From: Clostridia bacterium
Lineage (GTDB): Bacteria > Bacillota > Clostridia > Oscillospirales > CAG-272
Length of the DNA: 64,000 nt
Assembly (NCBI GenBank): GCA_017453305.1
Contig: JAFTKJ010000025.1
Location: forward strand, 392-64,391
Reading direction: 5' to 3'
The notes under the pieces are model-generated. The model saw only the letters and a list, made by a program, of their open reading frames with translations, made no database searches and was not told the DNA's origin. The translations under genes and the position numbers were made by a program. This document shows, one piece after another, positions 1 through 32,803 of this stretch (position 1 is the stretch's first letter; every line of letters starts with the position of its first letter).

Positions 1-318
1 TCGGGGTAAGGAACGAACACGTTTTCGCGCAATCTTTTTGCCAGCTTGGTCTTATTCTTGCGGATCTGTCGCTCAATGTTGGTGGCGGCATCGTCAAGTG
101 CATCGCGGAAGCTGTCAGCCCCTACCTCGCTGCGGAACAGCGTCCCCGCAGCGGAAATGGTGATTTCGATGAATTTTTGATTATGTTTGCAGCTGAGCGT
201 CACGTTTGCGTCGCCCTCGCCGGGGAAGAATTTTTCAAACTTAGCAAGCTTTTTTTCGATGAGCAGCTTCATCTCTTCATAAACGTTCATTTGTCTGCCG
301 ATAATTGTAATCTTCATC
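1..318 (-). CDS. hpf: ribosome hibernation promoting factor (HPF/RaiA), C-terminally truncated by window edge
   Basis: Minus-strand translation from ATG at 316-318 gives MKITIIGRQMNVYEEMKLLIEKKLAKFEKFFPGEGDANVTLS...ERQIRKNKTKL, which aligns to HPF/YfiA (e.g. MNITITGR..EKKLAKLERFF...ERQIRKHKTK). Confidence 0.8.
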
Positions 319-5492: not shown

Positions 5493-6191
5493 ATGAAAAA
5501 AACAGCTTTCTTTTTGGCATGCCTATTGCTCTGCCTGCTTGTATGCACGGGGTGTGCCGCCGAGCGCCACGATTTGCTGTATGAAATTGAGCGCGACGGC
5601 GTGGTTTATTGCGTTCGCGGAACGGGAACGCAGGCAAAGCAGATCGTGATCAAAAAGGACGGAAGCCTGATCTGGTCGCAACGGGTAAAGGCAGACCGCG
5701 AGATTGGAAATTTGGGCGGTACGTACGGCTTTGAATTGCAGGATCTCAATTTTGACGGACTTTTGGATCTTCTGATCGCGGTGGAAAAGACGAAGGATTG
5801 CGTTTCCTACGTTTGTTGGCTGCGCGATGCCGATCGCTTGTCCTTTACCGAGTCGACAGAGCTTTCGGGACTTTGCAATATTTACGCAGACGCGCGTTTG
5901 CAAGCGATCTTCGCTTTTTCGCAAACCGCAGAGATGCGCGGCGAGGATGGATACAGTACCTGCGATAAGACCACCAAGTACGTGTGGGAAGAGGGCAAGC
6001 TTGTTCCCGACATGTACGCCGCCATCAACTATTACTCCGGCGCAACGCAATATCCGTACTGCTACTCGGTGGCGTATTACGATGCCGAGATCAAGGATTT
6101 TAAGGATTCCTCCGACGACTGGATGACAGCCGAGGAGTATCGCTCCCTGGATTGGGACTTCTTGTACTATTTTAAGGACTCTGAAAAATAA
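5493..6191 (+). CDS. lipoprotein of unknown function
   Basis: Signal peptide with lipobox LLVCTGC; 232 aa. Confidence 0.6.
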   Translation: MKKTAFFLACLLLCLLVCTGCAAERHDLLYEIERDGVVYCVRGTGTQAKQIVIKKDGSLIWSQRVKADREIGNLGGTYGFELQDLNFDGLLDLLIAVEKTKDCVSYVCWLRDADRLSFTESTELSGLCNIYADARLQAIFAFSQTAEMRGEDGYSTCDKTTKYVWEEGKLVPDMYAAINYYSGATQYPYCYSVAYYDAEIKDFKDSSDDWMTAEEYRSLDWDFLYYFKDSEK

Positions 6192-6289
6192 AAAAGGGCA
6201 GGGGAGCGTCCCTGCGCACTTGAACCAATCGCCAAAAATAGAAGTGACCCTTGACTGTAGTTGTAATCCCACAATCAAGGGTCACTTCT
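6185..6289 (-). terminator. tandem rho-independent terminators oriented for minus-strand transcription
   Basis: Hairpin 6198-6215 (gcaggg/ccctgc) followed on minus strand by ttttttatttt; perfect 15-bp stem 6240-6254/6275-6289 followed on minus strand by tattttt. Confidence 0.5.
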
Positions 6290-6721
6290 GTTCGTTCTTA
6301 GTATCTAACATCTTTTGTGATCCTCTCTTTCTATAGTCTGCCTTTTTCTTCCGTTTCACAACTCCGATAACACACTTTTTTCTTTTTTTCTCTTTGGAGA
6401 ATACCCATCGTTATGCTTTGCGCTCGGTTCAAAAGGCGAATTGTTTGGGCTTCTTCAGCGGCACGGTGACGATTGGATACTCACACTCACAAATGCTCTT
6501 TATCAGCATTTTAAAAATCTATATTGAAGCGTTACACCGCCGTGTGATATATCTACTCCTTTTGACACGGTTGTTTTATTGTGTCCTCGTCTACCCATTT
6601 TTTTATTTCTACCGTTTTTTTCTTTTCTCTCCACGCACTGTATCCTTCGTGCTTTGGACCCGCCATGCCGAATGCCCGTGGCTTAGTGTTTCATCGGACC
6701 GTACCTCCTTTTCTTTTGGTC
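6230..6721 (-). ncRNA. candidate ~500-nt purine-rich noncoding transcript (unclassified)
   Basis: Minus-strand promoter TTGCAA(6756-6751)-17-TATACT(6733-6728); no ORF >60 aa on either strand over ~700 bp; strong strand asymmetry (minus strand A/G-rich); tandem terminators at 6289-6185. Confidence 0.3.
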
Positions 6722-6930
6722 ACTTATAGTATAGCACACTTTTTTGCAAATTGCAATATGGCAATGTGCAAGAAATTTTAACCCCGTTTTTGGGCAAAAA
6801 GGAGAAATTTCGGTGCACGCGCAAATTACCCCTTTACAAATGCAAAAAAGTATGATATAATATATCTGTTGTGTTGTGGCAATTCTGTCACAGCATTCTT
6901 TTTTTATTGCATGTGGGCACGGGAATAAAA

Positions 6931-6971
6931 GATGAGGGAGCCTTTTGTCAAAAAGGCTCCCTCATCTTTTT
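6931..6971. terminator. bidirectional terminator downstream of trpB2 (also 3' end of a candidate plus-strand sRNA)
   Basis: gatgagggagcc(tttt gtca aaaa)ggctccctcatc + ttttt on plus; T-rich on minus as well. Confidence 0.65.
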
Positions 6972-6979
6972 AAAATCAA

Positions 6980-8350
6980 TTAAAGCTTCGGGATTTTGGA
7001 AAGTCCTGCGGCAATCTCATCGTCGGTAGGCGCGTAGTCGGTCATTCTGCCGTCGTGGAATTTTTCATAGGACATCATGTCAAAGTATCCCGTACCGGTC
7101 AAGCCGAACACGATGACCTTTTCTTCGCCCGTTTCGCGGCACTTCATTGCCTCATCGATTGCCACCTTGATTGCGTGAGAGCTTTCGGGAGCAGGGAGGA
7201 TGCCTTCAATGCGTGCAAAATACTCTGCAGCCGCAAAGACCTCAGTCTGCTTGACCGTGCGTGCCTCCATCAGTCCCTCGTCGTACAGCTCGGAGAGGGT
7301 GGAGCTCATGCCGTGGTAGCGCAAGCCGCCTGCGTGCGTTGCCGCAGGGATAAAGCCACTTCCAAGGGTATACATCTTTGCCAAGGGGCAAACGCGACCG
7401 GTGTCGCAGTAATCGTAAACGTACTTTCCGCGGGTCAGACTGGGGCAGCTTTCGGGCTCAACAGCAATAAAGCGGTAATCTGCCTCACCGCGCAGCTTTT
7501 CACCCATAAAGGGCGCGATCAAGCCACCAAGGTTAGAGCCGCCGCCGGCACAGCCGATGACGATATCTGCCTTTACGCCGTATTTATCCAGCGCCGCCTT
7601 GGTCTCCATGCCGATCACGGATTGGTGGAGCATGACCTGGGAAAGCACGCTTCCCAGCACGTAGCGATAGCCTTCGCGCTCGGTTGCCGCCTCTACCGCC
7701 TCAGAGATCGCACAGCCAAGGCTGCCCGTGGTTCCGGGGAACTCCTCAAGGATCTGTCTGCCCACGCGCGTGGTGGTGGAGGGGGAGGGAGTAACGTCTG
7801 CACCGTAGGTACGCATCACCTCGCGGCGGAAGGGCTTTTGCTCATAGGAGCATTTGACCATAAATACCTTGCAGTCCAGGTCAAAGTAGGAGCACGCCAT
7901 AGAAAGCGCGGTACCCCATTGTCCTGCACCCGTCTCGGTGGTAACGCCCTTCAGCCCCTGCTGCTTTGCGTAGTATGCCTGCGCAATGGCAGAGTTGAGC
8001 TTGTGGCTTCCGCTGGTGTTGTTGCCCTCAAACTTGTAATAGATGTGTGCGGGCGTGCCCAGCTTCTTTTCCAGGCAGTATGCGCGCACCAGCGGTGCGG
8101 GACGGTACATTTTATAAAAGTTCAGGATCTCCTCGGGGATGGGAATATAGCGATTGGTGTCGTCCAGCTCCTGCTTGACAAGCTCGTCGCAAAATACCTT
8201 GCCCAGCTCCTCGGCGGTAATGGGCTTGCAGGTCTTGGGGTCGAGCAGGGGAGCGGGCTTTTTGGTCATATCAGCGCGCACGTTGTACCAGTTGCGCGGC
8301 ATCTCACTCTCTTCTAAATAAATTTTGTAGGGGATTTCTTTGTTTGCCAT
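6980..8350 (-). CDS. trpB: TrpB2-type tryptophan synthase beta subunit-like PLP enzyme
   Basis: 456 aa; ...HIYYKFEGNNTSGSHKLNSAIAQAYYAKQQGLKGVTTETGAGQWGTALSMAC... PLP-lysine (SHK) and GAGQWG motif; long TrpB2-type N-terminus. Confidence 0.85.
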   Translation of the reverse strand: MANKEIPYKIYLEESEMPRNWYNVRADMTKKPAPLLDPKTCKPITAEELGKVFCDELVKQELDDTNRYIPIPEEILNFYKMYRPAPLVRAYCLEKKLGTPAHIYYKFEGNNTSGSHKLNSAIAQAYYAKQQGLKGVTTETGAGQWGTALSMACSYFDLDCKVFMVKCSYEQKPFRREVMRTYGADVTPSPSTTTRVGRQILEEFPGTTGSLGCAISEAVEAATEREGYRYVLGSVLSQVMLHQSVIGMETKAALDKYGVKADIVIGCAGGGSNLGGLIAPFMGEKLRGEADYRFIAVEPESCPSLTRGKYVYDYCDTGRVCPLAKMYTLGSGFIPAATHAGGLRYHGMSSTLSELYDEGLMEARTVKQTEVFAAAEYFARIEGILPAPESSHAIKVAIDEAMKCRETGEEKVIVFGLTGTGYFDMMSYEKFHDGRMTDYAPTDDEIAAGLSKIPKL

Positions 8351-26469: not shown

Positions 26470-27048
26470 ATGAAGCTGACACAGTTATTTCAAAAGGATC
26501 GTCTTTCGCTTTCGTTTGAGGTCTTTCCGCCCAAAACGGACACCTCATTTGAGAGCGTCAAGCAAGCCACCGAGGAGATTGCCAAGCTGCACCCCGCGTT
26601 TATGAGCGTAACCTACGGCGCAGGCGGCGGAACCAGCCGCTACACCATGGAGATCACGCAGAACATCAAGGAGCATTACAACGTTCCCACCCTGGCACAT
26701 TTGACCTGCGTTTCCTCCACAAAGGAGACCGTGCACGCAAAGATCGGACAGATTCGTGCGGCGGGCATTACCGTACCGATTATTCCAGGCATTATGCCTA
26801 TTACCAACGGCAACCAGATCGAGCGTGCCATCAAGCTCTCGGGCTCATTTATGCCGCAACGGTTCAAAGCCTTGGTGGATAAATTTGGTACTTCTCCTGC
26901 CGCTATGAAGCAGGCGGGAATTGCCTACGCCACCGATCAGATCATCGACCTGTTTGCAAACGGCATCACAAACGTGCACGTTTACTCCATGAACAAGCCC
27001 GACGTTGCCGCCGCAATACAAAGCAATCTTTCCGATATTTTGGGGTGA
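26470..27048 (+). CDS. metF: methylenetetrahydrofolate reductase (MetF) homolog with ~100-aa in-frame internal deletion
   Basis: MKLTQLFQKDRLSLSFEVFPPKT...SVTYGAGGGT...HLTC... then GI-TVPIIPGIMPI; the segment equivalent to E. coli MetF ~120-220 (ALRGD... FAD/catalytic core) is absent. Confidence 0.6.
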   Translation: MKLTQLFQKDRLSLSFEVFPPKTDTSFESVKQATEEIAKLHPAFMSVTYGAGGGTSRYTMEITQNIKEHYNVPTLAHLTCVSSTKETVHAKIGQIRAAGITVPIIPGIMPITNGNQIERAIKLSGSFMPQRFKALVDKFGTSPAAMKQAGIAYATDQIIDLFANGITNVHVYSMNKPDVAAAIQSNLSDILG

Positions 27049-27055
27049 GAAAGAA

Positions 27056-27640
27056 ATGGAAGGGGTAATAGAAAGAAGTTTGCAGTCGCTTCAAGCGCGA
27101 TGCATTGCCACATTGTGTATTCCTTTTGGATTGCTGCTGCTTATTTTGGCAGTGATTTGGATTTTGCCGATTTTTTACCACCGCTTGGAGGATGGCAAGA
27201 TCAAAAGCCCACGTGTACGTGTGATCCTGCGTATTTTGTTTGCCGGTTCACGAAAAATAAAAGGGAAGTATAAAAAGCAGAAAGAGATTTTGATGCAGGT
27301 CGTTTTGACGTTGCTTTTTAGTGCCTTGCTGGCGTTATTGATTCTGCCGCAATTCAAACAGCTTTCCATGATTCAACGTGATATTTCCGAGGGCGCATAC
27401 GTCACTTACGAAGGCGCGTATGAAGTAGCCTATCACTCCTCGAGAGAATTTTATCTTTCTGATCTTTGGCTCGATGAGCGCGTGGTTACCCTGACTGATA
27501 CGAATGAGCAGGTTTGGGTGGACATGAGTGGAACGTGGGAGGGAATAACTTCCATCAGCGGAGAATTTTACGGAACGGTAGTGTACGGACAACACAGCAA
27601 ATGGGTGATCTACGTGAATGGATTGGTCGACGCGGAATAA
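27056..27640 (+). CDS. hypothetical membrane protein
   Basis: 194 aa; two TM segments then soluble domain. Confidence 0.4.
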   Translation: MEGVIERSLQSLQARCIATLCIPFGLLLLILAVIWILPIFYHRLEDGKIKSPRVRVILRILFAGSRKIKGKYKKQKEILMQVVLTLLFSALLALLILPQFKQLSMIQRDISEGAYVTYEGAYEVAYHSSREFYLSDLWLDERVVTLTDTNEQVWVDMSGTWEGITSISGEFYGTVVYGQHSKWVIYVNGLVDAE

Positions 27641-27648
27641 AATATAAA

Positions 27649-27690
27649 AAGTGTGCCGCAAATGCATTGCATTTGCGGCACGTTTTTATT
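27649..27690. terminator. bidirectional terminator
   Basis: gtgccgcaaatgca-ttgc-atttgcggcac + ttttatttt. Confidence 0.65.
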
Positions 27691-27699
27691 TTGAAATGA

Positions 27700-27911
27700 T
27701 TATTTCTTCGTGGGAGGCTCGGGAGCCCAAGTCTTGGGGAAGCCTGCTGCAAAGCCCTCCAGGTTATCCTGGTCAAGGGACTTCTTGTTTGCTTCGTCTT
27801 CTTCCAGTGCCTTCTTTACTTCTTCGTCAGCCTCTTTGTTGTTGGCAAAATCGTCCAATCCGCCAAGGATATCGTCCTCTGCCACTTGATTCTTCAATTC
27901 TTCAGACATCT
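27700..27911 (-). CDS. 70-aa highly acidic, probably disordered protein (last gene of SPFH operon)
   Basis: MSEELKNQVAEDDILGGLDDFANNKEADEEVKKALEEDEANKK...; RBS gaggagg; ATG 1 nt after upstream stop. Confidence 0.5.
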
Positions 27912-29674
27912 TATTTTGCCTCCTCAATCATCATGATATCCAAATCGCCGATGTTGCAGGGAACAAAGCCGTTAACCAGAGCAAGGATAGCGATCCACTC
28001 GTTTGCTGCTTTTTCAATCGTACTGCATCCATTGTTGACTATTTGGTCATATTTATTATTAATTGCAAGCTTATCAGCCTTTGCCTTGCCGTTCTTCTTG
28101 TTCCAGAATACGAATACGACAACAGCGCAGATCAAACCGATGATAGCAACGGGAGCCGCATCTACTGCGAAGCAGATAGCGCCTACTACTGCGAGCACCA
28201 GAGCGATGATCAGCATAGCGGTGGGGGACTTAATGGTTGCAAGCTCTGCGTCACGCTTCTTGTTGACGTGAGCGGTGTAATCTTCCTTCATCTTGCCCTT
28301 GTTGGCACCGTCGGTGGTGTTACCCTTCCAATCGTCCACCTTAACGGTGATCTCCTGCGGGAAGTCGTCGCGCTTCTCACCGATGAACTTGTGGTAAGCG
28401 GGAACAATGTACTTGCTCAGGAATGCGCAAGAGGTCTTGCGTGCGGAAGCGAGGCTGCCGCTCTGATCGCCGGAGGTGATTGCCTGGGTCAACTGTTCTG
28501 CAAAGTTGATGGGCGGGTCAGCTCTCTTGATCTTTCTTGCCTGGATGATTCTCTTTGCAAGCTCTTCATCACCCTTCAGTCTCTTGATCTCAGACATGAG
28601 CTCTTCCTCTTCACGCAGAGGAGCCTCTTCGTCGTCAAACTTGCTGACCAGAGTGAGCAGCTCGTTGTCGATCATGTTAGCCAGCTTGGTCTTATCAACG
28701 GAAGCGTTTGCAATGCCTTCAAAGTGAGCAAAGATCTCGTCTACGGCGTTGATGCGCTTTACGTAAGCGTTGATGCGCTCAAACTCGGGGCAAACCTTTG
28801 CAAGGGTGGGGTAGGTCTCGTTGATGTCTACGCATCTGCTCTGGTAGAACTGTGCCCAGTAAGCAGCCTGCTCAGCAGCGAGAGAGCCGTTTTCGTCAAT
28901 TTCCTTCATCCACTGATCAACGTAGCTGTAGAAGTCACAGGTCTGCTTGATCTCTTCAGAGTTGGGATCGCCAAATACGCCGTTTACGTAAGCGTTGATG
29001 TAAACGATGATACTGCTGCGCATCATCTTTGCCTTTTGCATGCCAAAGTACATGTTGAGCCACTTGTAGCAAGCCAGGTTTCTTGCGTGGTTGACCTTTT
29101 CGTCGTCGGTGTTAGCAGCTCTGCGGCAAACCAGTGCGAAAACGAGAGCGGTCTTTTCCTTATCGCGGTTAAGGGCTTCCTTCAATGCGCGATCAGCAAG
29201 CTCCTTGTTGTCTGCGATCCATGCGGAGAGTGCAACTACGCAGGGAGCGAGCCAATACTTGGGAGTGGAGATCATCAACTGCTCGGAAGCGGTTGCGATG
29301 GTGTCGTTACGAACCAGGGCGAGATCGGTTGCCTGAAGGATACCGAGCATGGTGTTTCTGACCAGCTGATAGCTGCCGTACTTTTGCTCGAGCTCCTGGC
29401 GGATACGGATGATCTCGGTGAGTGCGCGCTGCAGGGCAGCTGCCATTCTCTGTTCCTTAACCATCTTTACAAAGCGGTCGCGCAGATCAGCCAATTGGCT
29501 ATCTACCTGATTGACTTTGCGGTCTACAAGGACCACATTGTCGTTGACGGTAATGAGGTTATTACCGATTTGCGTAGTCTGTGACTGCAAAGCAGATACA
29601 GCAGCAGCCGTGCGAGCAATGCTGTTGGATATGTTTGTCAGGTCAACATAACTAACTTGGACTTCATTTGACAT
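27911..29674 (-). CDS. 587-aa coiled-coil protein with C-proximal transmembrane hairpin, unknown family
   Basis: Strong RBS aaaggag; long helical N-region, charged EEEEL...KRLKGDEEL segment, two TM helices (AMLIIALVLAVVGAICFAV / APVAIIGLICAVVVFVFW), ~70-aa C-tail. Confidence 0.65.
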   Translation of the reverse strand: MSNEVQVSYVDLTNISNSIARTAAAVSALQSQTTQIGNNLITVNDNVVLVDRKVNQVDSQLADLRDRFVKMVKEQRMAAALQRALTEIIRIRQELEQKYGSYQLVRNTMLGILQATDLALVRNDTIATASEQLMISTPKYWLAPCVVALSAWIADNKELADRALKEALNRDKEKTALVFALVCRRAANTDDEKVNHARNLACYKWLNMYFGMQKAKMMRSSIIVYINAYVNGVFGDPNSEEIKQTCDFYSYVDQWMKEIDENGSLAAEQAAYWAQFYQSRCVDINETYPTLAKVCPEFERINAYVKRINAVDEIFAHFEGIANASVDKTKLANMIDNELLTLVSKFDDEEAPLREEEELMSEIKRLKGDEELAKRIIQARKIKRADPPINFAEQLTQAITSGDQSGSLASARKTSCAFLSKYIVPAYHKFIGEKRDDFPQEITVKVDDWKGNTTDGANKGKMKEDYTAHVNKKRDAELATIKSPTAMLIIALVLAVVGAICFAVDAAPVAIIGLICAVVVFVFWNKKNGKAKADKLAINNKYDQIVNNGCSTIEKAANEWIAILALVNGFVPCNIGDLDIMMIEEAK

Positions 29675-29732
29675 GAAAACGTCACTCCTTTATATAATTT
29701 TTTGGGGCACAAAATAAATTTGGTGGACGCGA

Positions 29733-30553: not shown

Positions 30554-31258
30554 TTACTTCGAAACACTCAACATCGTGTTTCTCGTTTTGAGAGTGACCT
30601 TAGCGGATTTGATCTTTTTCAGGATTGCTTCGGGCTCTTCCTCTTCGTCGATCATTGTTTGAATTTCAATGACCTGCATACGGAAGCGGCTCTCCAGCTC
30701 CTTGGTTTCGGCATTGCCGATGATATTACTGTATTCTACGGCTTGGCAAAGCACCTTGAGCTCTGCCTTGACCTCCGCATTTTCGGAAAGGTCTGCCATT
30801 CCGGTGATCTGAATTGCCAGACCGTCCAGCATTGCGGCACCGCCGTACAGCTCCTTGTCGTTTTGTGCAATGCGGCCGGATGCGTAGAAAATGAATACCA
30901 TCGCAGCAGCATATACGAGAAGGATGAGGATGTTTGGAAGAACGACGACCAAACGGTTGTCACCCTTGGAGATGATAACGAAGATCGTGTTCAGGATCAA
31001 CGAAACGATAAAGTAAACGCCGGTATACAAAAGGGCAGGGGTTCTTGACGAAATGGAAGCGTCTTTGTCTCCGGGTGCGAGGGCTGCCATTGCCGCTGTG
31101 ATGACAAAGGCGATCATCGCAAAGGTGTAACCGCCCCAGAAGAGGAATTCGCGGTTATCGGGATTGGAGAGCATAAAGACCAAAAGATTCCAGATAGCGG
31201 CGATGATCACAACGAAGATCATCGAGCTGAGACGAAAACGAAGCTTTTTAATTTTCAT
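30554..31258 (-). CDS. YdjH-like integral membrane protein (4 TM + cytoplasmic C-domain)
   Basis: 234 aa; RBS aaggag; position between SPFH and Zn-ribbon genes mirrors ydjH. Confidence 0.5.
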   Translation of the reverse strand: MKIKKLRFRLSSMIFVVIIAAIWNLLVFMLSNPDNREFLFWGGYTFAMIAFVITAAMAALAPGDKDASISSRTPALLYTGVYFIVSLILNTIFVIISKGDNRLVVVLPNILILLVYAAAMVFIFYASGRIAQNDKELYGGAAMLDGLAIQITGMADLSENAEVKAELKVLCQAVEYSNIIGNAETKELESRFRMQVIEIQTMIDEEEEPEAILKKIKSAKVTLKTRNTMLSVSK

Positions 31259-31276: not shown

Positions 31277-32725
31277 TTAGCCTTGTTGTGTGGGGGTTCC
31301 GCAGTTGTCACAGAATTTTGTACCGGGAGTCAGCTCCTTGCCGCAGCTTGTGCAGATCACTGCAAGGCGTGTGCCACAGTTGCCGCAGAACTTTGCGCCT
31401 GCGGGGAGCTCGTTACCGCAATTGGGGCAATGGTTGCCTTGCGGCTCTGCCTTCATGCCGCAGTTGGGACAAAACTTGGTGCCGGCGGGAAGAATGTTTC
31501 CGCAATTTTTGCAGGGGATACCTGCGGGAGCGACCTTTTGTCCGCAACCGGAGCAGAACTGTGCGCCTGCGGGAACGGGAGCGCCGCAATTGGAGCAGGG
31601 AGTACCTGCACCCTGTGCTTGCTGTGCGCCGGGGTTCATTGCGTTCATTGTACTTTGTGCCATGTTATCCATGCCCATGCCAAACGCTTTTCCCATACCA
31701 ACGCCCATGCCAAGTCCCATGCCTGCTCCCATAAAGTCGGAGCCGGAGCCGGTGTTGGCGGCGGCGGTCTTCATGACGTCAAAGCCCTTTTCCTGCTGAT
31801 AGGTGTAGCCCATCATGCGCATCTTTTTGGCTTCAGCCTCTGCAAGACGCTCCATGCGAATGGCTTCTGCCTCTGCCTCTGCCTGCGCAGTACCAATGGA
31901 CTGCTTTGCGGTAGCTGCCTTGAGGCGTTCCTCGTTGATGGGAGCCAGATCCTCGTCCGGCGCCATGATATCCATAAAGGAGAAGTCATGAATGACAACG
32001 CCGAATTCACTGAAGTAGGGAACCAGCTTTTCCTGAATGGTGGAAGCAAGCTTTTCGCGATTTTCGTGGATATTGAGAATGCCGATCTGCTTTTCCGCCA
32101 TGGTGGAAGCCAAGGTGTTGGAAAGTGCATCGGGAATCTTAATGCTCAAATATTCCTCAAGATCTTGCGTGGTAAATACCTTTTGGGTTCCTACAACGCG
32201 CTCCAGGAACTTCTTTGCATCATCGATACCGTCCTCGTTTTCGCGGATGGTGCCGATGTGTGCCGAGAAATAACCGTGTGCACGAACGTGAATTTCAACG
32301 TTGTAAACGGGGTCGCTCATTCTGATCGGTGCGGGAGTGCCCCACTTGGTGGGACGCAGACGGATCAGGTTGATGAAATAGACCTCGCAATGGTAGATGG
32401 TCTGTCCGCCCGTAGCCATACGGGTCATGCCGTTCATGCCTGCAATGTTGTTGCTGTCCAGAACCCATCTGCCGGAGCCGAGGGAACGCTCAGCCTTACC
32501 ATCGCGGAAGATGACTGCAACCTGCGACTCGTGAACGATCAAAACAGATTGATCGTTAAAATCCTCGATATCGTGCTTGTAAGCAACGATGTCGCGGCTT
32601 TGCGGATCATCCGGATCCCATTTGATCACGCTTAAAATACCTTTTTGGATTTTGCGGTCGATTTCGCCCTGCTCGGAGGGAGTAGTTTTACGAAACGCCG
32701 ACTTGATTGAACTGATAATACCCAT
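31277..32725 (-). CDS. SPFH/Band-7 family protein (YdjI-like) with Met/Gly-rich linker and four tandem C-terminal zinc ribbons
   Basis: N-domain KWDPDD..IVAYKHDIEDF..LIVHESQVAVIFRDGK aligns to B. subtilis YdjI (VEWEEFRDDMIFYKW..LIIRPGQDAVFLNNGR); GMG-rich linker; 8 CxxCG motifs (CSNCG, CSGCG, CKNCG, CPNCG, CPNCG, CGNCG, CTSCG, CDNCG). Confidence 0.8.
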   Translation of the reverse strand: MGIISSIKSAFRKTTPSEQGEIDRKIQKGILSVIKWDPDDPQSRDIVAYKHDIEDFNDQSVLIVHESQVAVIFRDGKAERSLGSGRWVLDSNNIAGMNGMTRMATGGQTIYHCEVYFINLIRLRPTKWGTPAPIRMSDPVYNVEIHVRAHGYFSAHIGTIRENEDGIDDAKKFLERVVGTQKVFTTQDLEEYLSIKIPDALSNTLASTMAEKQIGILNIHENREKLASTIQEKLVPYFSEFGVVIHDFSFMDIMAPDEDLAPINEERLKAATAKQSIGTAQAEAEAEAIRMERLAEAEAKKMRMMGYTYQQEKGFDVMKTAAANTGSGSDFMGAGMGLGMGVGMGKAFGMGMDNMAQSTMNAMNPGAQQAQGAGTPCSNCGAPVPAGAQFCSGCGQKVAPAGIPCKNCGNILPAGTKFCPNCGMKAEPQGNHCPNCGNELPAGAKFCGNCGTRLAVICTSCGKELTPGTKFCDNCGTPTQQG

Positions 32726-32775: not shown

Positions 32776-32803
32776 ATTATAGCACTTTTTTGAATTATGT
32801 CAA
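32776..32803 (-). promoter_or_regulatory. sigma-A type promoter of the SPFH operon (TTGACA-16-TATAAT)
   Basis: minus strand ttgacataattcaaaaaagtgctataat. Confidence 0.5.

Follow-up and report, generated by a model that had tools for sequence, protein, structure and literature searches.

A conserved bacterial membrane protein of an unnamed family, encoded with a small acidic peptide beside SPFH or AAA+ partners

Membrane integrity depends centrally on SPFH proteins and PspA/ESCRT-III, and their partners are, to our knowledge, largely unknown outside Bacillus and E. coli. Recurrent partners of PspA/ESCRT-III include SPFH/Band-7 and AAA+ proteins (PMC11237479, PMC11188069). In B. subtilis, YdjI recruits PspA and itself needs membrane partners (PMC8581546), namely YdjG and YdjH (SamG/SamH), which are required for its recruitment to the membrane (PMC8581546; bioRxiv 10.64898/2026.02.06.704340). 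YdjG combines Zn ribbons, an NTF2-like domain and a transmembrane (TM) segment, while YdjH is a membrane protein with a TPM domain (PMC11237479). A regulatory role has been suggested for the TFIIB-type Zn ribbon of YdjG (PMC9239133), the samGHI products associate in a complex close to the membrane (PMC8581546, PMC9239133), and SamGHI has been reported to affect transcription globally (bioRxiv 10.64898/2026.02.06.704340).

We analysed a stretch of 64,000 nucleotides from a Clostridia bacterium (the window), which contains a gene for a widely conserved, unnamed bacterial membrane protein of 587 aa. The original prediction had described this open reading frame as an unrecognised protein of an SPFH operon, and the gene proved to be real: it begins with ATG, 10 nt downstream of an AAGGAG Shine-Dalgarno sequence (29685–29690), and its product has more than 1,400 homologues, forming 885 clusters at 50% identity, with many residues (charged ones among them) invariant across the aligned homologues. 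The plus-strand reading of the same interval was rejected, as it is crowded with stops. That no family could be assigned also held true, since sequence and profile searches of Pfam, NCBIfam, PADLOC, PHROGs and the PDB returned only coiled-coil and TM noise with no explanatory match; the matches set aside on these grounds were DUF4010, Laminin_II, DUF2207_C, holin-like and CCC_membrane. The case named beforehand as refuting, a confident match to a chemotaxis (MCP) or SMC protein in an unrelated context, was looked for and did not arise, as neither MCPsignal, HAMP nor SMC gave a confident match in Pfam, NCBIfam or the PDB. The literature found on PF13421/Band_7_1, or on SPFH proteins with zinc ribbons and their neighbourhood, held no account of the family or of its cassette.

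The gene belongs to a discrete five-gene operon with its own promoter-like and terminator-like sites (Table 1), in the order SPFH protein with Zn ribbons, 4-TM protein, Zn-ribbon/TPR protein, 587-aa protein and 69-aa acidic peptide. This order is kept in about 80 loci of Clostridia and Collinsella, which bears out the predicted membership of an SPFH operon. An SPFH gene lies upstream of the family gene in 68 of 69 loci, and the Zn-ribbon/TPR gene is immediately upstream in all 79 of the loci compared; one locus (L023) has the protein–peptide pair without the SPFH and 4-TM genes. The window's SPFH protein has no TM helix and carries a G/M-rich linker followed by repeated C-terminal Zn ribbons (four Zn_Ribbon_1 matches). 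The 4-TM protein has no TPM domain and no other Pfam match. The Zn-ribbon/TPR protein, also without a TM helix, has some homologues that carry PF08271 (TFIIB-type Zn ribbon), and gave an hhalign probability of only 0.3% for homology to the 587-aa protein. The ATG of the peptide gene, which had gone unmentioned in the original prediction, sits 1 nt past the stop of the 587-aa gene. The peptide has an invariant C-terminal G-F-P-x-W-x-L-x-P-P motif, and of 81 related loci 78 have a small open reading frame 3' of the family gene in which a regular expression detected it, while the remaining three have degenerate forms.

Table 1 Features of the operon, of its downstream flank and of the 587-aa protein in the window.
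Feature	Position	Strand	Basis
Promoter-like TTGACA-16-TATAAT (12/12 matches, TG extension), upstream of SPFH gene	32776..32803	minus	
Gene 1: 482-aa soluble SPFH protein (Band_7_1, YdjI type)	31277..32725	minus	PF13421 4e-30
Gene 2: 234-aa protein, 4 TM helices and cytoplasmic helical tail	30554..31258	minus	
Gene 3: 269-aa soluble protein, N-terminal C4 Zn ribbon and TPR-like superhelix	29733..30542	minus	
Gene 4: 587-aa protein, clade-A member of unnamed family	27911..29674 (stop codon included)	minus	
Variable N/Q/S/T/V-rich heptad coiled coil, aa 13–72	29459..29638	minus	Model helices 13–36, 43–114
Conserved core, aa 73–436: long helix, then globular all-helical domain	28367..29458	minus	
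Conserved beta-hairpin FP..IT....W.G.T.DG.N, aa 437–456	28307..28366	minus	Conservation and model
Two-helix TM hairpin, aa 485–525, outer loop 3–4 residues	28100..28222	minus	
Cytoplasmic helix extending TM2, IN..YD..I..G...I....QW, aa 526–572	27959..28099	minus	Conservation and model
Gene 5: 69-aa acidic protein ending ...NLEGFAAGFPKTWAPEPPTKK	27700..27909	minus	
Terminator-like hairpin (13-bp stem, 8 GC pairs) then T run, just past 69-aa gene	27653..27681	minus	
Separate 2-TM open reading frame	27005–27640	plus	
Short complete MTHFR open reading frame, central part of profile missing	26470–27048	plus	

Genes for an aldose epimerase and a radical-SAM protein flank the operon at one end; at the other end are the 2-TM open reading frame and the short MTHFR gene. 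A frameshift in the MTHFR gene was considered and rejected, as these are two separate frames. An apparent SPFH–4TM fusion in Collinsella (704–728-aa frames) was likewise discarded, because the tblastn alignments crossed a real in-frame stop. The 99 immediate neighbours of clade-A cassettes, the clade to which the window operon belongs, are mutually unrelated and mostly housekeeping genes, with no family seen more than twice, and neither integrase nor transposase is among their 25 most frequent families.

In an AlphaFold2 model (mean pLDDT 80.7) the N-terminal 480 aa of the protein are nearly all helical. The original prediction of a helical, coiled-coil region of about 470 aa was therefore right as to helices, but not as to the coiled coil throughout: long helices of that type are confined to aa ~13–116, while aa 117–436 form a conserved globular domain of about 18 short helices with a weak TPR-like resemblance. 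The VDLTNISNS...GNNL segment (aa 10–40) lies at the N-terminal end, and the charged EEEELMSEIKRLKGDEELAKR segment (aa 355–375) within the globular domain. In the heptad region V/I/L/N occupy 65–94% of the a/d slots in 25 homologues, and this coiled coil is likely an oligomerisation stalk. It found weak coiled-coil matches only, most of them to proteins that we take to form trimeric coiled coils. Conserved motifs of the core are EQR..AALQRA.TEIIR.RQELE in the long helix, and YWLAP...W, EKT.L.FALICRR and the acidic helix LREEE...GDE in the globular domain. Among the invariant residues are R92/Q93/E94, R106, Y140-P144, W152, C183-R185 and E350-E357.

The predicted C-proximal hairpin was confirmed as two hydrophobic helices at aa ~485–503 and 507–525, with a 19-aa Kyte-Doolittle mean of up to 3.0. 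Across the family its position and hydrophobicity are conserved and its sequence is poorly so. K/R-rich segments lie on either side, so that both termini should be cytoplasmic. A C-tail of about 62 aa does contain the two cysteines that had been pointed out (Cys550 and Cys573), but neither is conserved in homologues.

How far, then, does this locus resemble the Bacillus operon? What it shares with samGHI is a soluble SPFH protein (Band_7_1) that has Zn ribbons at its C-terminus, a protein beginning with a Zn ribbon of TFIIB type (matched by PF08271 in some homologues) and a multi-pass or membrane-anchored partner. Unlike in samGHI, the SPFH gene comes first rather than last, pspA is absent, the protein with the Zn ribbon is a soluble, TPR-like one lacking the NTF2-like domain and TM segment, the membrane protein has four TM helices and no TPM domain, two extra genes (for the 587-aa protein and the peptide) are present, and the promoter is sigma-70-like in appearance, not sigma-W-like. 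The argument that the 587-aa gene occupies the slot of pspA fails, as it is the fourth of five genes and not the first; the neighbours are not YdjG/YdjH homologues, the TFIIB-type Zn ribbon being all that is common to both.

A sister clade (B), larger than clade A (95 of the 150 best representatives), retains the protein and small-peptide pair, the SPFH set being replaced by a Cdc48/VAT-like classical AAA+ ATPase and two unassigned proteins of about 155 aa. The ATPase (E = 2e-62 to VAT; TIGR01243 CDC48) resembles Vps4/CdvC less closely than it does the D2 domain of Cdc48/VAT, and lacks both a protease domain and a TM helix. SPFH and AAA+ genes did not co-occur in any of the loci seen. The accessory proteins of the two clades have no detectable homology to each other, so that the clades could do different things, and PDB profile searches with them gave no result in either clade. 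SPFH-type cassettes have five genes and AAA+-type cassettes four to five; four of the five products per cassette lack a family assignment, and three do in the smallest AAA+ versions seen. The clade-A cassette occurs commonly in Collinsella aerofaciens and in Clostridia of the human gut and the rumen, and the clade-B form is often found on plasmids, and on one satellite phage, in several phyla. Carriers that can be cultured are C. aerofaciens, Butyrivibrio sp. X503 and Oribacterium sp. P6A1 for clade A and Ligilactobacillus salivarius for clade B.

Because SPFH and AAA+ proteins are the reported partner types of PspA/ESCRT-III, the suggestion that the protein is a functional analogue of PspA gains support from context, through the SPFH gene of clade A and the AAA+ gene of clade B, as guilt by association; the homology side of the suggestion was not found. 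PspA_IM30 (PF04012) did not match the protein at E ≤ 10, nor any of the five operon products, and the TelA-like nature also proposed fell away, with no match to TelA (PF05816) down to E = 10. Neither family was among the 25 most matched by 25 aligned homologues at E ≤ 0.1, and when the family alignment was compared by hhalign with a PspA alignment of low diversity, the probability was 0.8%. The protein does not show the ESCRT-III fold (an alpha1–alpha2 hairpin plus alpha3–alpha5), and no fold similarity to ESCRT-III or PspA was found for it. Two sub-threshold matches fell in the coiled coil, one to Snf7 (PF03357; aa 45–110, E = 0.05, with 13.7 bits where the cut-off is 27.3) and the other to a PHROG annotated "tellurite resistance" (E = 0.0024, limited to aa 13–97).

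The likenesses and differences can be stated more closely. Like PspA/IM30/ESCRT-III, the family protein is proposed to act as an all-helical cytoplasmic protein at the inner face of the membrane; clade A is encoded with a YdjI-type SPFH plus Zn-ribbon protein, as in the PspA–YdjI pairing of B. subtilis (PMC8581546), and clade B with a classical-clade AAA+ ATPase, as in ESCRT-III–Vps4. Unlike PspA, which is peripheral, it is integral to the membrane via its hairpin, and it is about 2.6 times longer; unlike both PspA and ESCRT-III, it is conserved in a globular helical domain and has an obligate small peptide partner. HflK/C–FtsH offers a second parallel, an SPFH scaffold and a classical AAA+ machine tied to membrane-embedded clients, but the present family is tied to one or the other, never both among the loci seen, and its SPFH protein lacks a TM helix, as its AAA+ ATPase lacks a protease domain and a TM helix. 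Similarly, a conserved C-terminal peptide motif encoded next door recalls TPR adaptors (Hop/Sti1, Sgt2, PP5, MamA), although the 587-aa protein has no Pfam TPR match and the peptide is a putative ligand.

The neighbourhood pattern points to an undescribed membrane-maintenance machine. Our tentative reading, to which we give a probability of about 0.4, is that the 587-aa protein is the self-assembling, membrane-anchored core subunit of a modular system for membrane surveillance and maintenance, paired with the acidic peptide. The hairpin would anchor the protein in the cytoplasmic membrane and leave its two termini on the inner side, oligomerisation would fall to the heptad stalk at the N-terminus, and the all-helical domain (aa 73–436) would be a platform for docking the adjacent Zn-ribbon/TPR protein and the motif-bearing peptide. 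Its assembly state may be governed by lineage-specific partners, the SPFH scaffold and 4-TM protein in clade A and the Cdc48/VAT-like unfoldase in clade B. In the manner of a PspA-type effector, it would assemble on the cytoplasmic side of the membrane when the envelope is stressed, the assemblies being organised or recycled by the SPFH or AAA+ partners. Oligomerisation, partner docking and the role in membrane stress are what we infer from these features.

The protein might instead be a passive anchor or adaptor, incapable of assembly or remodelling by itself, that only tethers the soluble SPFH protein, and perhaps an effector encoded elsewhere, to the membrane. The SPFH partner lacks a TM helix, YdjI depends on YdjG/YdjH for its membrane recruitment as described above, the poor conservation of the hairpin sequence is what would be expected of a mere anchor, and the helical core resembles TPR-like interaction modules. 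However, the 4-TM protein of the same operon could already be the anchor, a mere tether would hardly need 480 cytoplasmic residues with many charged ones invariant, and the protein–peptide pair persists in L023 and in a clade without any SPFH protein, which makes a purely passive role unlikely in our view.

A second alternative, which we hold to be credible but doubtful, is that the protein is a membrane effector or sensor of an anti-phage system of the abortive-infection type, or of another conflict system. Once released or activated by its partners, the protein with the hairpin would disturb the membrane, with the peptide as inhibitor or trigger. The patchy distribution across phyla fits this idea, as does the company of clade B: its cassette was found on a 26-kb Komagataeibacter plasmid (adjoining an IS3 transposase and an integrase), a Comamonas megaplasmid and a Ligilactobacillus salivarius plasmid, beside a DUF2779 protein in an IMG/VR contig, and at the far (cargo) end of the Streptococcus satellite phage Javan368. 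The best PADLOC match of its ATPase is IetA (2e-29), but that similarity is confined to the AAA+ module, and in PADLOC-DB 2.0 the clade-B operon gave only AAA+ domain matches (IetA or TRIP13) and the window operon only sub-threshold coiled-coil/TM matches (PbeC 0.0021, LeoBC 0.01), so that no component bar the generic AAA+ domain fits any model. Clade-A cassettes, moreover, sit among unrelated, mostly housekeeping genes, with defence-model matches for only a handful of the 99 neighbours, and relatives occur in just one phage record and one of 2.9 million IMG/VR viral contigs. A phage origin of clade A was rejected, since that sole IMG/VR match is distant and belongs to clade B.

It is quite improbable that the protein is a sensor or signal transducer of membrane stress, whose hairpin senses the bilayer while the cytoplasmic domain sequesters or releases the Zn-ribbon/TPR protein or the peptide, which would then act on gene expression or another target. 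PF08271 in some Zn-ribbon/TPR homologues, the regulatory role suggested for the YdjG counterpart, the reported influence of SamGHI on global transcription and a tight protein–peptide pairing that recalls sequestration pairs would all be in keeping with it. Nevertheless, profile searches found no output domain (DNA-binding, kinase, cyclase or other) in the five products, the outer loop is very short, and clade B is partnered by an unfoldase rather than by a signalling enzyme. Lastly, a true PspA/ESCRT-III or TelA homologue whose similarity has decayed below detection, for which the two sub-threshold matches and the long N-terminal helix pair of the model could be adduced, is most improbable and already largely refuted, as both matches lie in compositionally biased coiled coil among equally weak ones, the family is conserved in the globular domain and not in the N-terminal helices, and the PspA and TelA searches given above were empty.

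These results define a new cassette pair, an SPFH type and a sister AAA+ type, in which a shared protein–peptide pair is wired to a scaffold or to an unfoldase, and which may allow SPFH and AAA+ action on a common membrane client to be compared. Should the defence reading hold instead, the cassette would represent a new immunity module that acts on membranes. The membrane-maintenance reading can be carried further, to a third kind of bacterial membrane-remodelling or repair protein, unrelated to ESCRT-III/PspA/Vipp1 or to dynamin-like proteins, that is hairpin-anchored, oligomerised by a coiled coil, built on helical repeats and served by a peptide cofactor; SPFH cages would build or confine its assemblies in Clostridia and Coriobacteriia, and a Cdc48-like unfoldase would disassemble them in the mobile sister cassette. 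We hold this extension to be unlikely but credible; under it, the ESCRT-III/SPFH/Vps4 logic would have evolved convergently.

The 587-aa protein is the product of the fourth of five co-directional genes, on the minus strand, with a ribosome-binding site (AAGGAG) 10 nt 5' of its ATG. A plus-strand gene in the same interval was ruled out, as frame translation of that strand gave many stops. The original prediction of a 587-aa protein with a transmembrane (TM) hairpin was borne out, with corrections on strand, coiled-coil extent and cysteines, and the two segments it had quoted map to aa 10-40 and aa 355-375. The SPFH protein encoded by the first gene has a low-complexity linker rich in Gly/Met, and its C-terminus matches Zn_Ribbon_1 four times; the 4-TM protein encoded by the second has a conserved ...K.RN... 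ending and no family match. The third gene encodes a 269-aa Zn-ribbon/TPR protein, and the fifth, which the original prediction had not included, an acidic protein with the C-terminus NLEGFAAGFPKTWAPEPPTKK (given also as ...LEGFAAGFPKTWAPEPPTKK). Outside the operon, a short MTHFR-like ORF aligns with both ends of the 287-position Pfam profile, with the central part apparently missing (the sequence jumps from ...IRAAGIT to VPIIPGIMPI), perhaps through truncation of the gene, its decay to a pseudogene or a deletion in the assembly; the separate ORF that overlaps it had no family match.

Coordinates of the operon and its flanks, of segments in the 587-aa protein model and of clade-B cassettes in homologous loci of other genomes
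Feature	Position	Strand	Remark
Promoter TTGACA-16-TATAAT, perfect, with TG extension	32803-32776	-	5' of five-gene operon
Gene 1, 482-aa soluble SPFH protein, Band_7_1 (YdjI) type	31277-32725	-	
Gene 2, 234-aa 4-TM protein, helical cytoplasmic tail	30554-31258	-	
Gene 4, 587-aa protein, 587 codons, ATG start	27911-29674	-	ORF reading
Gene 5, 69-aa acidic protein	27909-27700	-	ATG one base past stop of 587-aa gene
Strong hairpin terminator	27681-27653	-	3' end of five-gene operon
Short MTHFR-like gene, 192 aa	26470-27048	+	
Separate 211-aa ORF, two TM helices	27005-27640	+	44-nt overlap with MTHFR-like ORF
Predicted helices	aa 13-36 and 43-114		AlphaFold2 model
About 18 shorter predicted helices	between aa 118 and 432		AlphaFold2 model
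Predicted beta-hairpin	aa 442-453		AlphaFold2 model
Predicted helix	aa 459-478		AlphaFold2 model
Predicted TM1	aa 485-503		AlphaFold2 model
Predicted single long helix, including TM2 and running on into cytoplasm	aa 507-569		AlphaFold2 model
Clade-B cassette	L084 5971-10507		
Clade-B cassette	L088 8001-12421		
Clade-B cassette	L092 1106-5629		
Clade-B cassette	L093 6495-11030		
Clade-B cassette	L100 9674-14257		

Hydropathy analysis placed two neighbouring TM helices at aa ~485-503 and 507-525, with a Kyte-Doolittle 19-residue mean of up to 3.0. The DAAP linker between them, together with the flanking segments NKKRD...IK and WNKKNGKAKADK, predicts an inside-inside membrane hairpin whose outer loop has no more than 3-4 residues. 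With 25 diverse homologues as the input alignment, AlphaFold2 gave a model with a mean pLDDT of 80.7 and a pTM of 0.61. The helix layout of this model indicates that the N-terminal ~470 aa had correctly been called helical but incorrectly coiled coil, as the coiled-coil-like part is limited to the first ~115 residues. The C-terminal tail has the two expected cysteines, Cys550 and Cys573; both are unconserved among homologues.

The protein had been described as not assignable to any family, and this holds: Pfam, NCBIfam, PADLOC and PHROGs gave sub-threshold coiled-coil or TM noise only, and PDB sequence and profile searches gave matches restricted to the N-terminal coiled coil (E >= 0.0014), likewise noise. 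Most of the PDB matches are to trimeric coiled-coil proteins (Lpp, reovirus sigma-1, P22 gp26, autotransporter stalks and HA2), a weak hint to the oligomeric state of the 587-aa protein. MCP and SMC proteins were not matched in Pfam, NCBIfam or the PDB. We found no Pfam or NCBIfam model for the family and no paper on it or on either of the cassettes described below.

More than 1,400 relatives were found at E <= 1e-3 among 8,000 candidates scored, nearly all of them unannotated or "hypothetical", and one of identical sequence is from a Clostridia MAG. When 1.84 billion cluster representatives were searched exhaustively with a profile, 885 clusters reached E <= 1e-3 and 443 of them E <= 1e-30; the best 150 of the 885 representatives are mostly 540-680 aa long, with a few shorter fragments. 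A further 'one genome for each GTDB species' scan, limited by a sequence pattern, confirmed 389 loci, in Lachnospiraceae, Oscillospiraceae, Christensenella-like organisms, other Clostridia, Collinsella and Coriobacteriaceae. The N-terminal heptad segment (aa 13-72) is variable in sequence and retains V/I/L/N at a/d positions. The adjoining aa 73-186 are highly conserved, with a mean majority-residue frequency of 0.73-0.76 among ~40%-identical sequences and the motifs EQR..AALQRA.TEIIR.RQELE, G.Y...R....G.LQA.D, P.YWLAP..VA..AW and RD.EKT.L.FALICRR. An acidic helix (LREEE...GDE) and a beta-hairpin (FP..IT....W.G.T.DG.N) are also conserved, and of the TM hairpin hydrophobicity and nothing else.

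The family falls into two clades, A, to which the 587-aa protein belongs, and its sister B; invariant residues common to both include A84, R106, Y140, L142, W152, W205, W255, W273, E350 and G368. Membership of an SPFH operon, as originally claimed, extends across clade A, where the SPFH gene lies 5' of the family gene in 68 of 69 loci and the Zn-ribbon/TPR gene immediately 5' of it in all 79 loci with enough sequence. Three of the 68 contain an extra Zn-ribbon and trypsin-like protease gene. In two Ruminococcus-type loci (L009 and L016, about 5570-7020) such an insert, whose product joins a Zn ribbon to a trypsin-like serine protease, lies between the SPFH and Zn-ribbon/TPR genes, and the peptide motif is degenerate (GFPAGWTLTT). 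The protein in the 4-TM position is either recognisable or a very divergent protein with four TM helices. Two Lachnospiraceae MAGs have reduced cassettes, one lacking the 4-TM gene (L026) and one retaining genes 3-5 only, adjoining VTC/DUF4956 genes (L023); therefore the tightest unit is the Zn-ribbon/TPR protein, the family protein and the peptide, and the SPFH and 4-TM genes are dispensable at the locus or encoded elsewhere.

A small acidic ORF with L-E-G-F-A-x-C-F-P-x-W-D-L-H-P-P follows the family gene in 78 of 81 clade-A loci and is degenerate in the other three, and a small ORF with [GA]-[FL]-P-x-W-x-[LI]-x-P-[PA] lies 3' of it in virtually all loci of the two clades (in clade B, for example, GFPDWTILPP, GLPSWDLVPP and AFPEWDLLPA plus a basic tail). 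In L061 and L091, this ORF has an additional N-terminal Zn ribbon.

Clade B, entered through one IMG/VR contig with a 31% identical relative and a DUF2779 protein alongside, accounts for 95 of the best 150 representatives, and its family protein has the same length, hairpin and core motifs. In every locus with enough sequence the family gene is followed by the motif ORF, a ~142-200-aa protein and an AAA ATPase (515-525 aa in complete loci). Most Firmicutes-type loci also encode a ~160-aa protein 3' of the ATPase; in proteobacterial loci it is encoded 5' of the family gene. Neither small protein has a family assignment. SPFH, Zn-ribbon/TPR and 4-TM genes are absent from clade-B loci. Selenomonas and Fusobacterium vincentii are among the carriers of clade B. 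The single-ring ATPase belongs to the classical AAA+ clade; VAT (2e-62) is its nearest PDB relative, followed by p97/Cdc48 D2, and it also matches TIGR01243 CDC48. No homology was seen between clade-A and clade-B accessory proteins, or between them and anything in the PDB. Several AAA+-cassette products (L084, L088, L091, L092, L093) end in similar basic-hydrophobic tails, which may be a shared docking motif: ...RTRKVLV, ...RRAVLLG or similar in the ATPase, ...RRILL or ...RRNILI in the proteobacterial ~190-aa protein and ...RRVKVVD or ...KRTIRV in the family protein.

The membrane-anchored protein and the small peptide with its invariant C-terminal motif are an evolutionarily stable pair, which comes with either of two modules, SPFH-based or AAA+-based. 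YdjI-type SPFH proteins are soluble, require membrane partners and recruit PspA (PMC8581546; bioRxiv 10.64898/2026.02.06.704340), PspA has repeatedly and independently become associated with Band-7 and AAA+ ATPases (PMC11237479), and archaeal ESCRT-III/Vps4 loci are accompanied by SPFH and Zn-ribbon proteins (PMC11188069); the family thus has the same range of partners as ESCRT-III-type effectors. From its anatomy and context we infer, with a probability of roughly 0.4, that the family protein self-assembles and forms the hairpin-anchored core of a complex for membrane surveillance and maintenance. In this model the protein would oligomerise through its coiled coil, the TPR partner and the peptide would bind to its conserved helical domain, and the assembly would be organised or recycled by the SPFH scaffold (clade A) or unfoldase (clade B).

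The family protein could instead do no more than anchor the SPFH protein or act as its adaptor, but this is unlikely given that the operon already has a 4-TM gene, that the cytoplasmic part is large and conserved, and that the protein and peptide persist without SPFH. A role in an anti-phage or other conflict system, as its membrane effector or sensor, would fit the mobile elements that carry clade B: a Ligilactobacillus salivarius plasmid, two Komagataeibacter plasmids (adjoining an IS3 transposase and integrase), a Comamonas megaplasmid and the 14-kb Streptococcus satellite phage Javan368, where the cassette is at the far end. However, PADLOC had no fitting model for the clade-B cassette except a generic AAA similarity to IetA, restricted to the AAA module, and the 99 immediate outside neighbours of clade-A cassettes are mostly housekeeping enzymes, with no family in more than two loci and only a handful of defence-model matches. 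The clade-A cassette is self-contained and outside obvious defence islands, and we regard a conflict role as doubtful. That the protein is a sensor or sequestration device seems very unlikely.

The protein had also been proposed as a functional analogue of PspA, for which the SPFH and AAA+ partners give contextual support, or as TelA-like. The claim that it occupies the PspA slot of the Bacillus operon proved loose, as the gene order differs and the neighbours, apart from the Zn ribbon, are not YdjG or YdjH homologues. Neither PspA_IM30 nor TelA matched the 587-aa protein down to E = 10, against the TelA-like proposal; Snf7 scored 13.7 bits (cut-off 27.3) inside the coiled coil, hhalign of the family and PspA alignments gave a probability of 0.8%, and no PspA, Vipp1 or CHMP chains were among the matches listed. 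The family protein has no detectable relationship to PspA, ESCRT-III or TelA, and cryptic homology to the latter two is highly improbable.

Membrane modules linked to SPFH proteins are already known as a kind of system. What is new is the composition of this one: four of the five products have no family assignment, the peptide partner is obligate, and an alternative AAA+ wiring exists. The family might even represent a third class of membrane-remodelling proteins in bacteria, distinct from ESCRT-III, a prospect we consider rather improbable.
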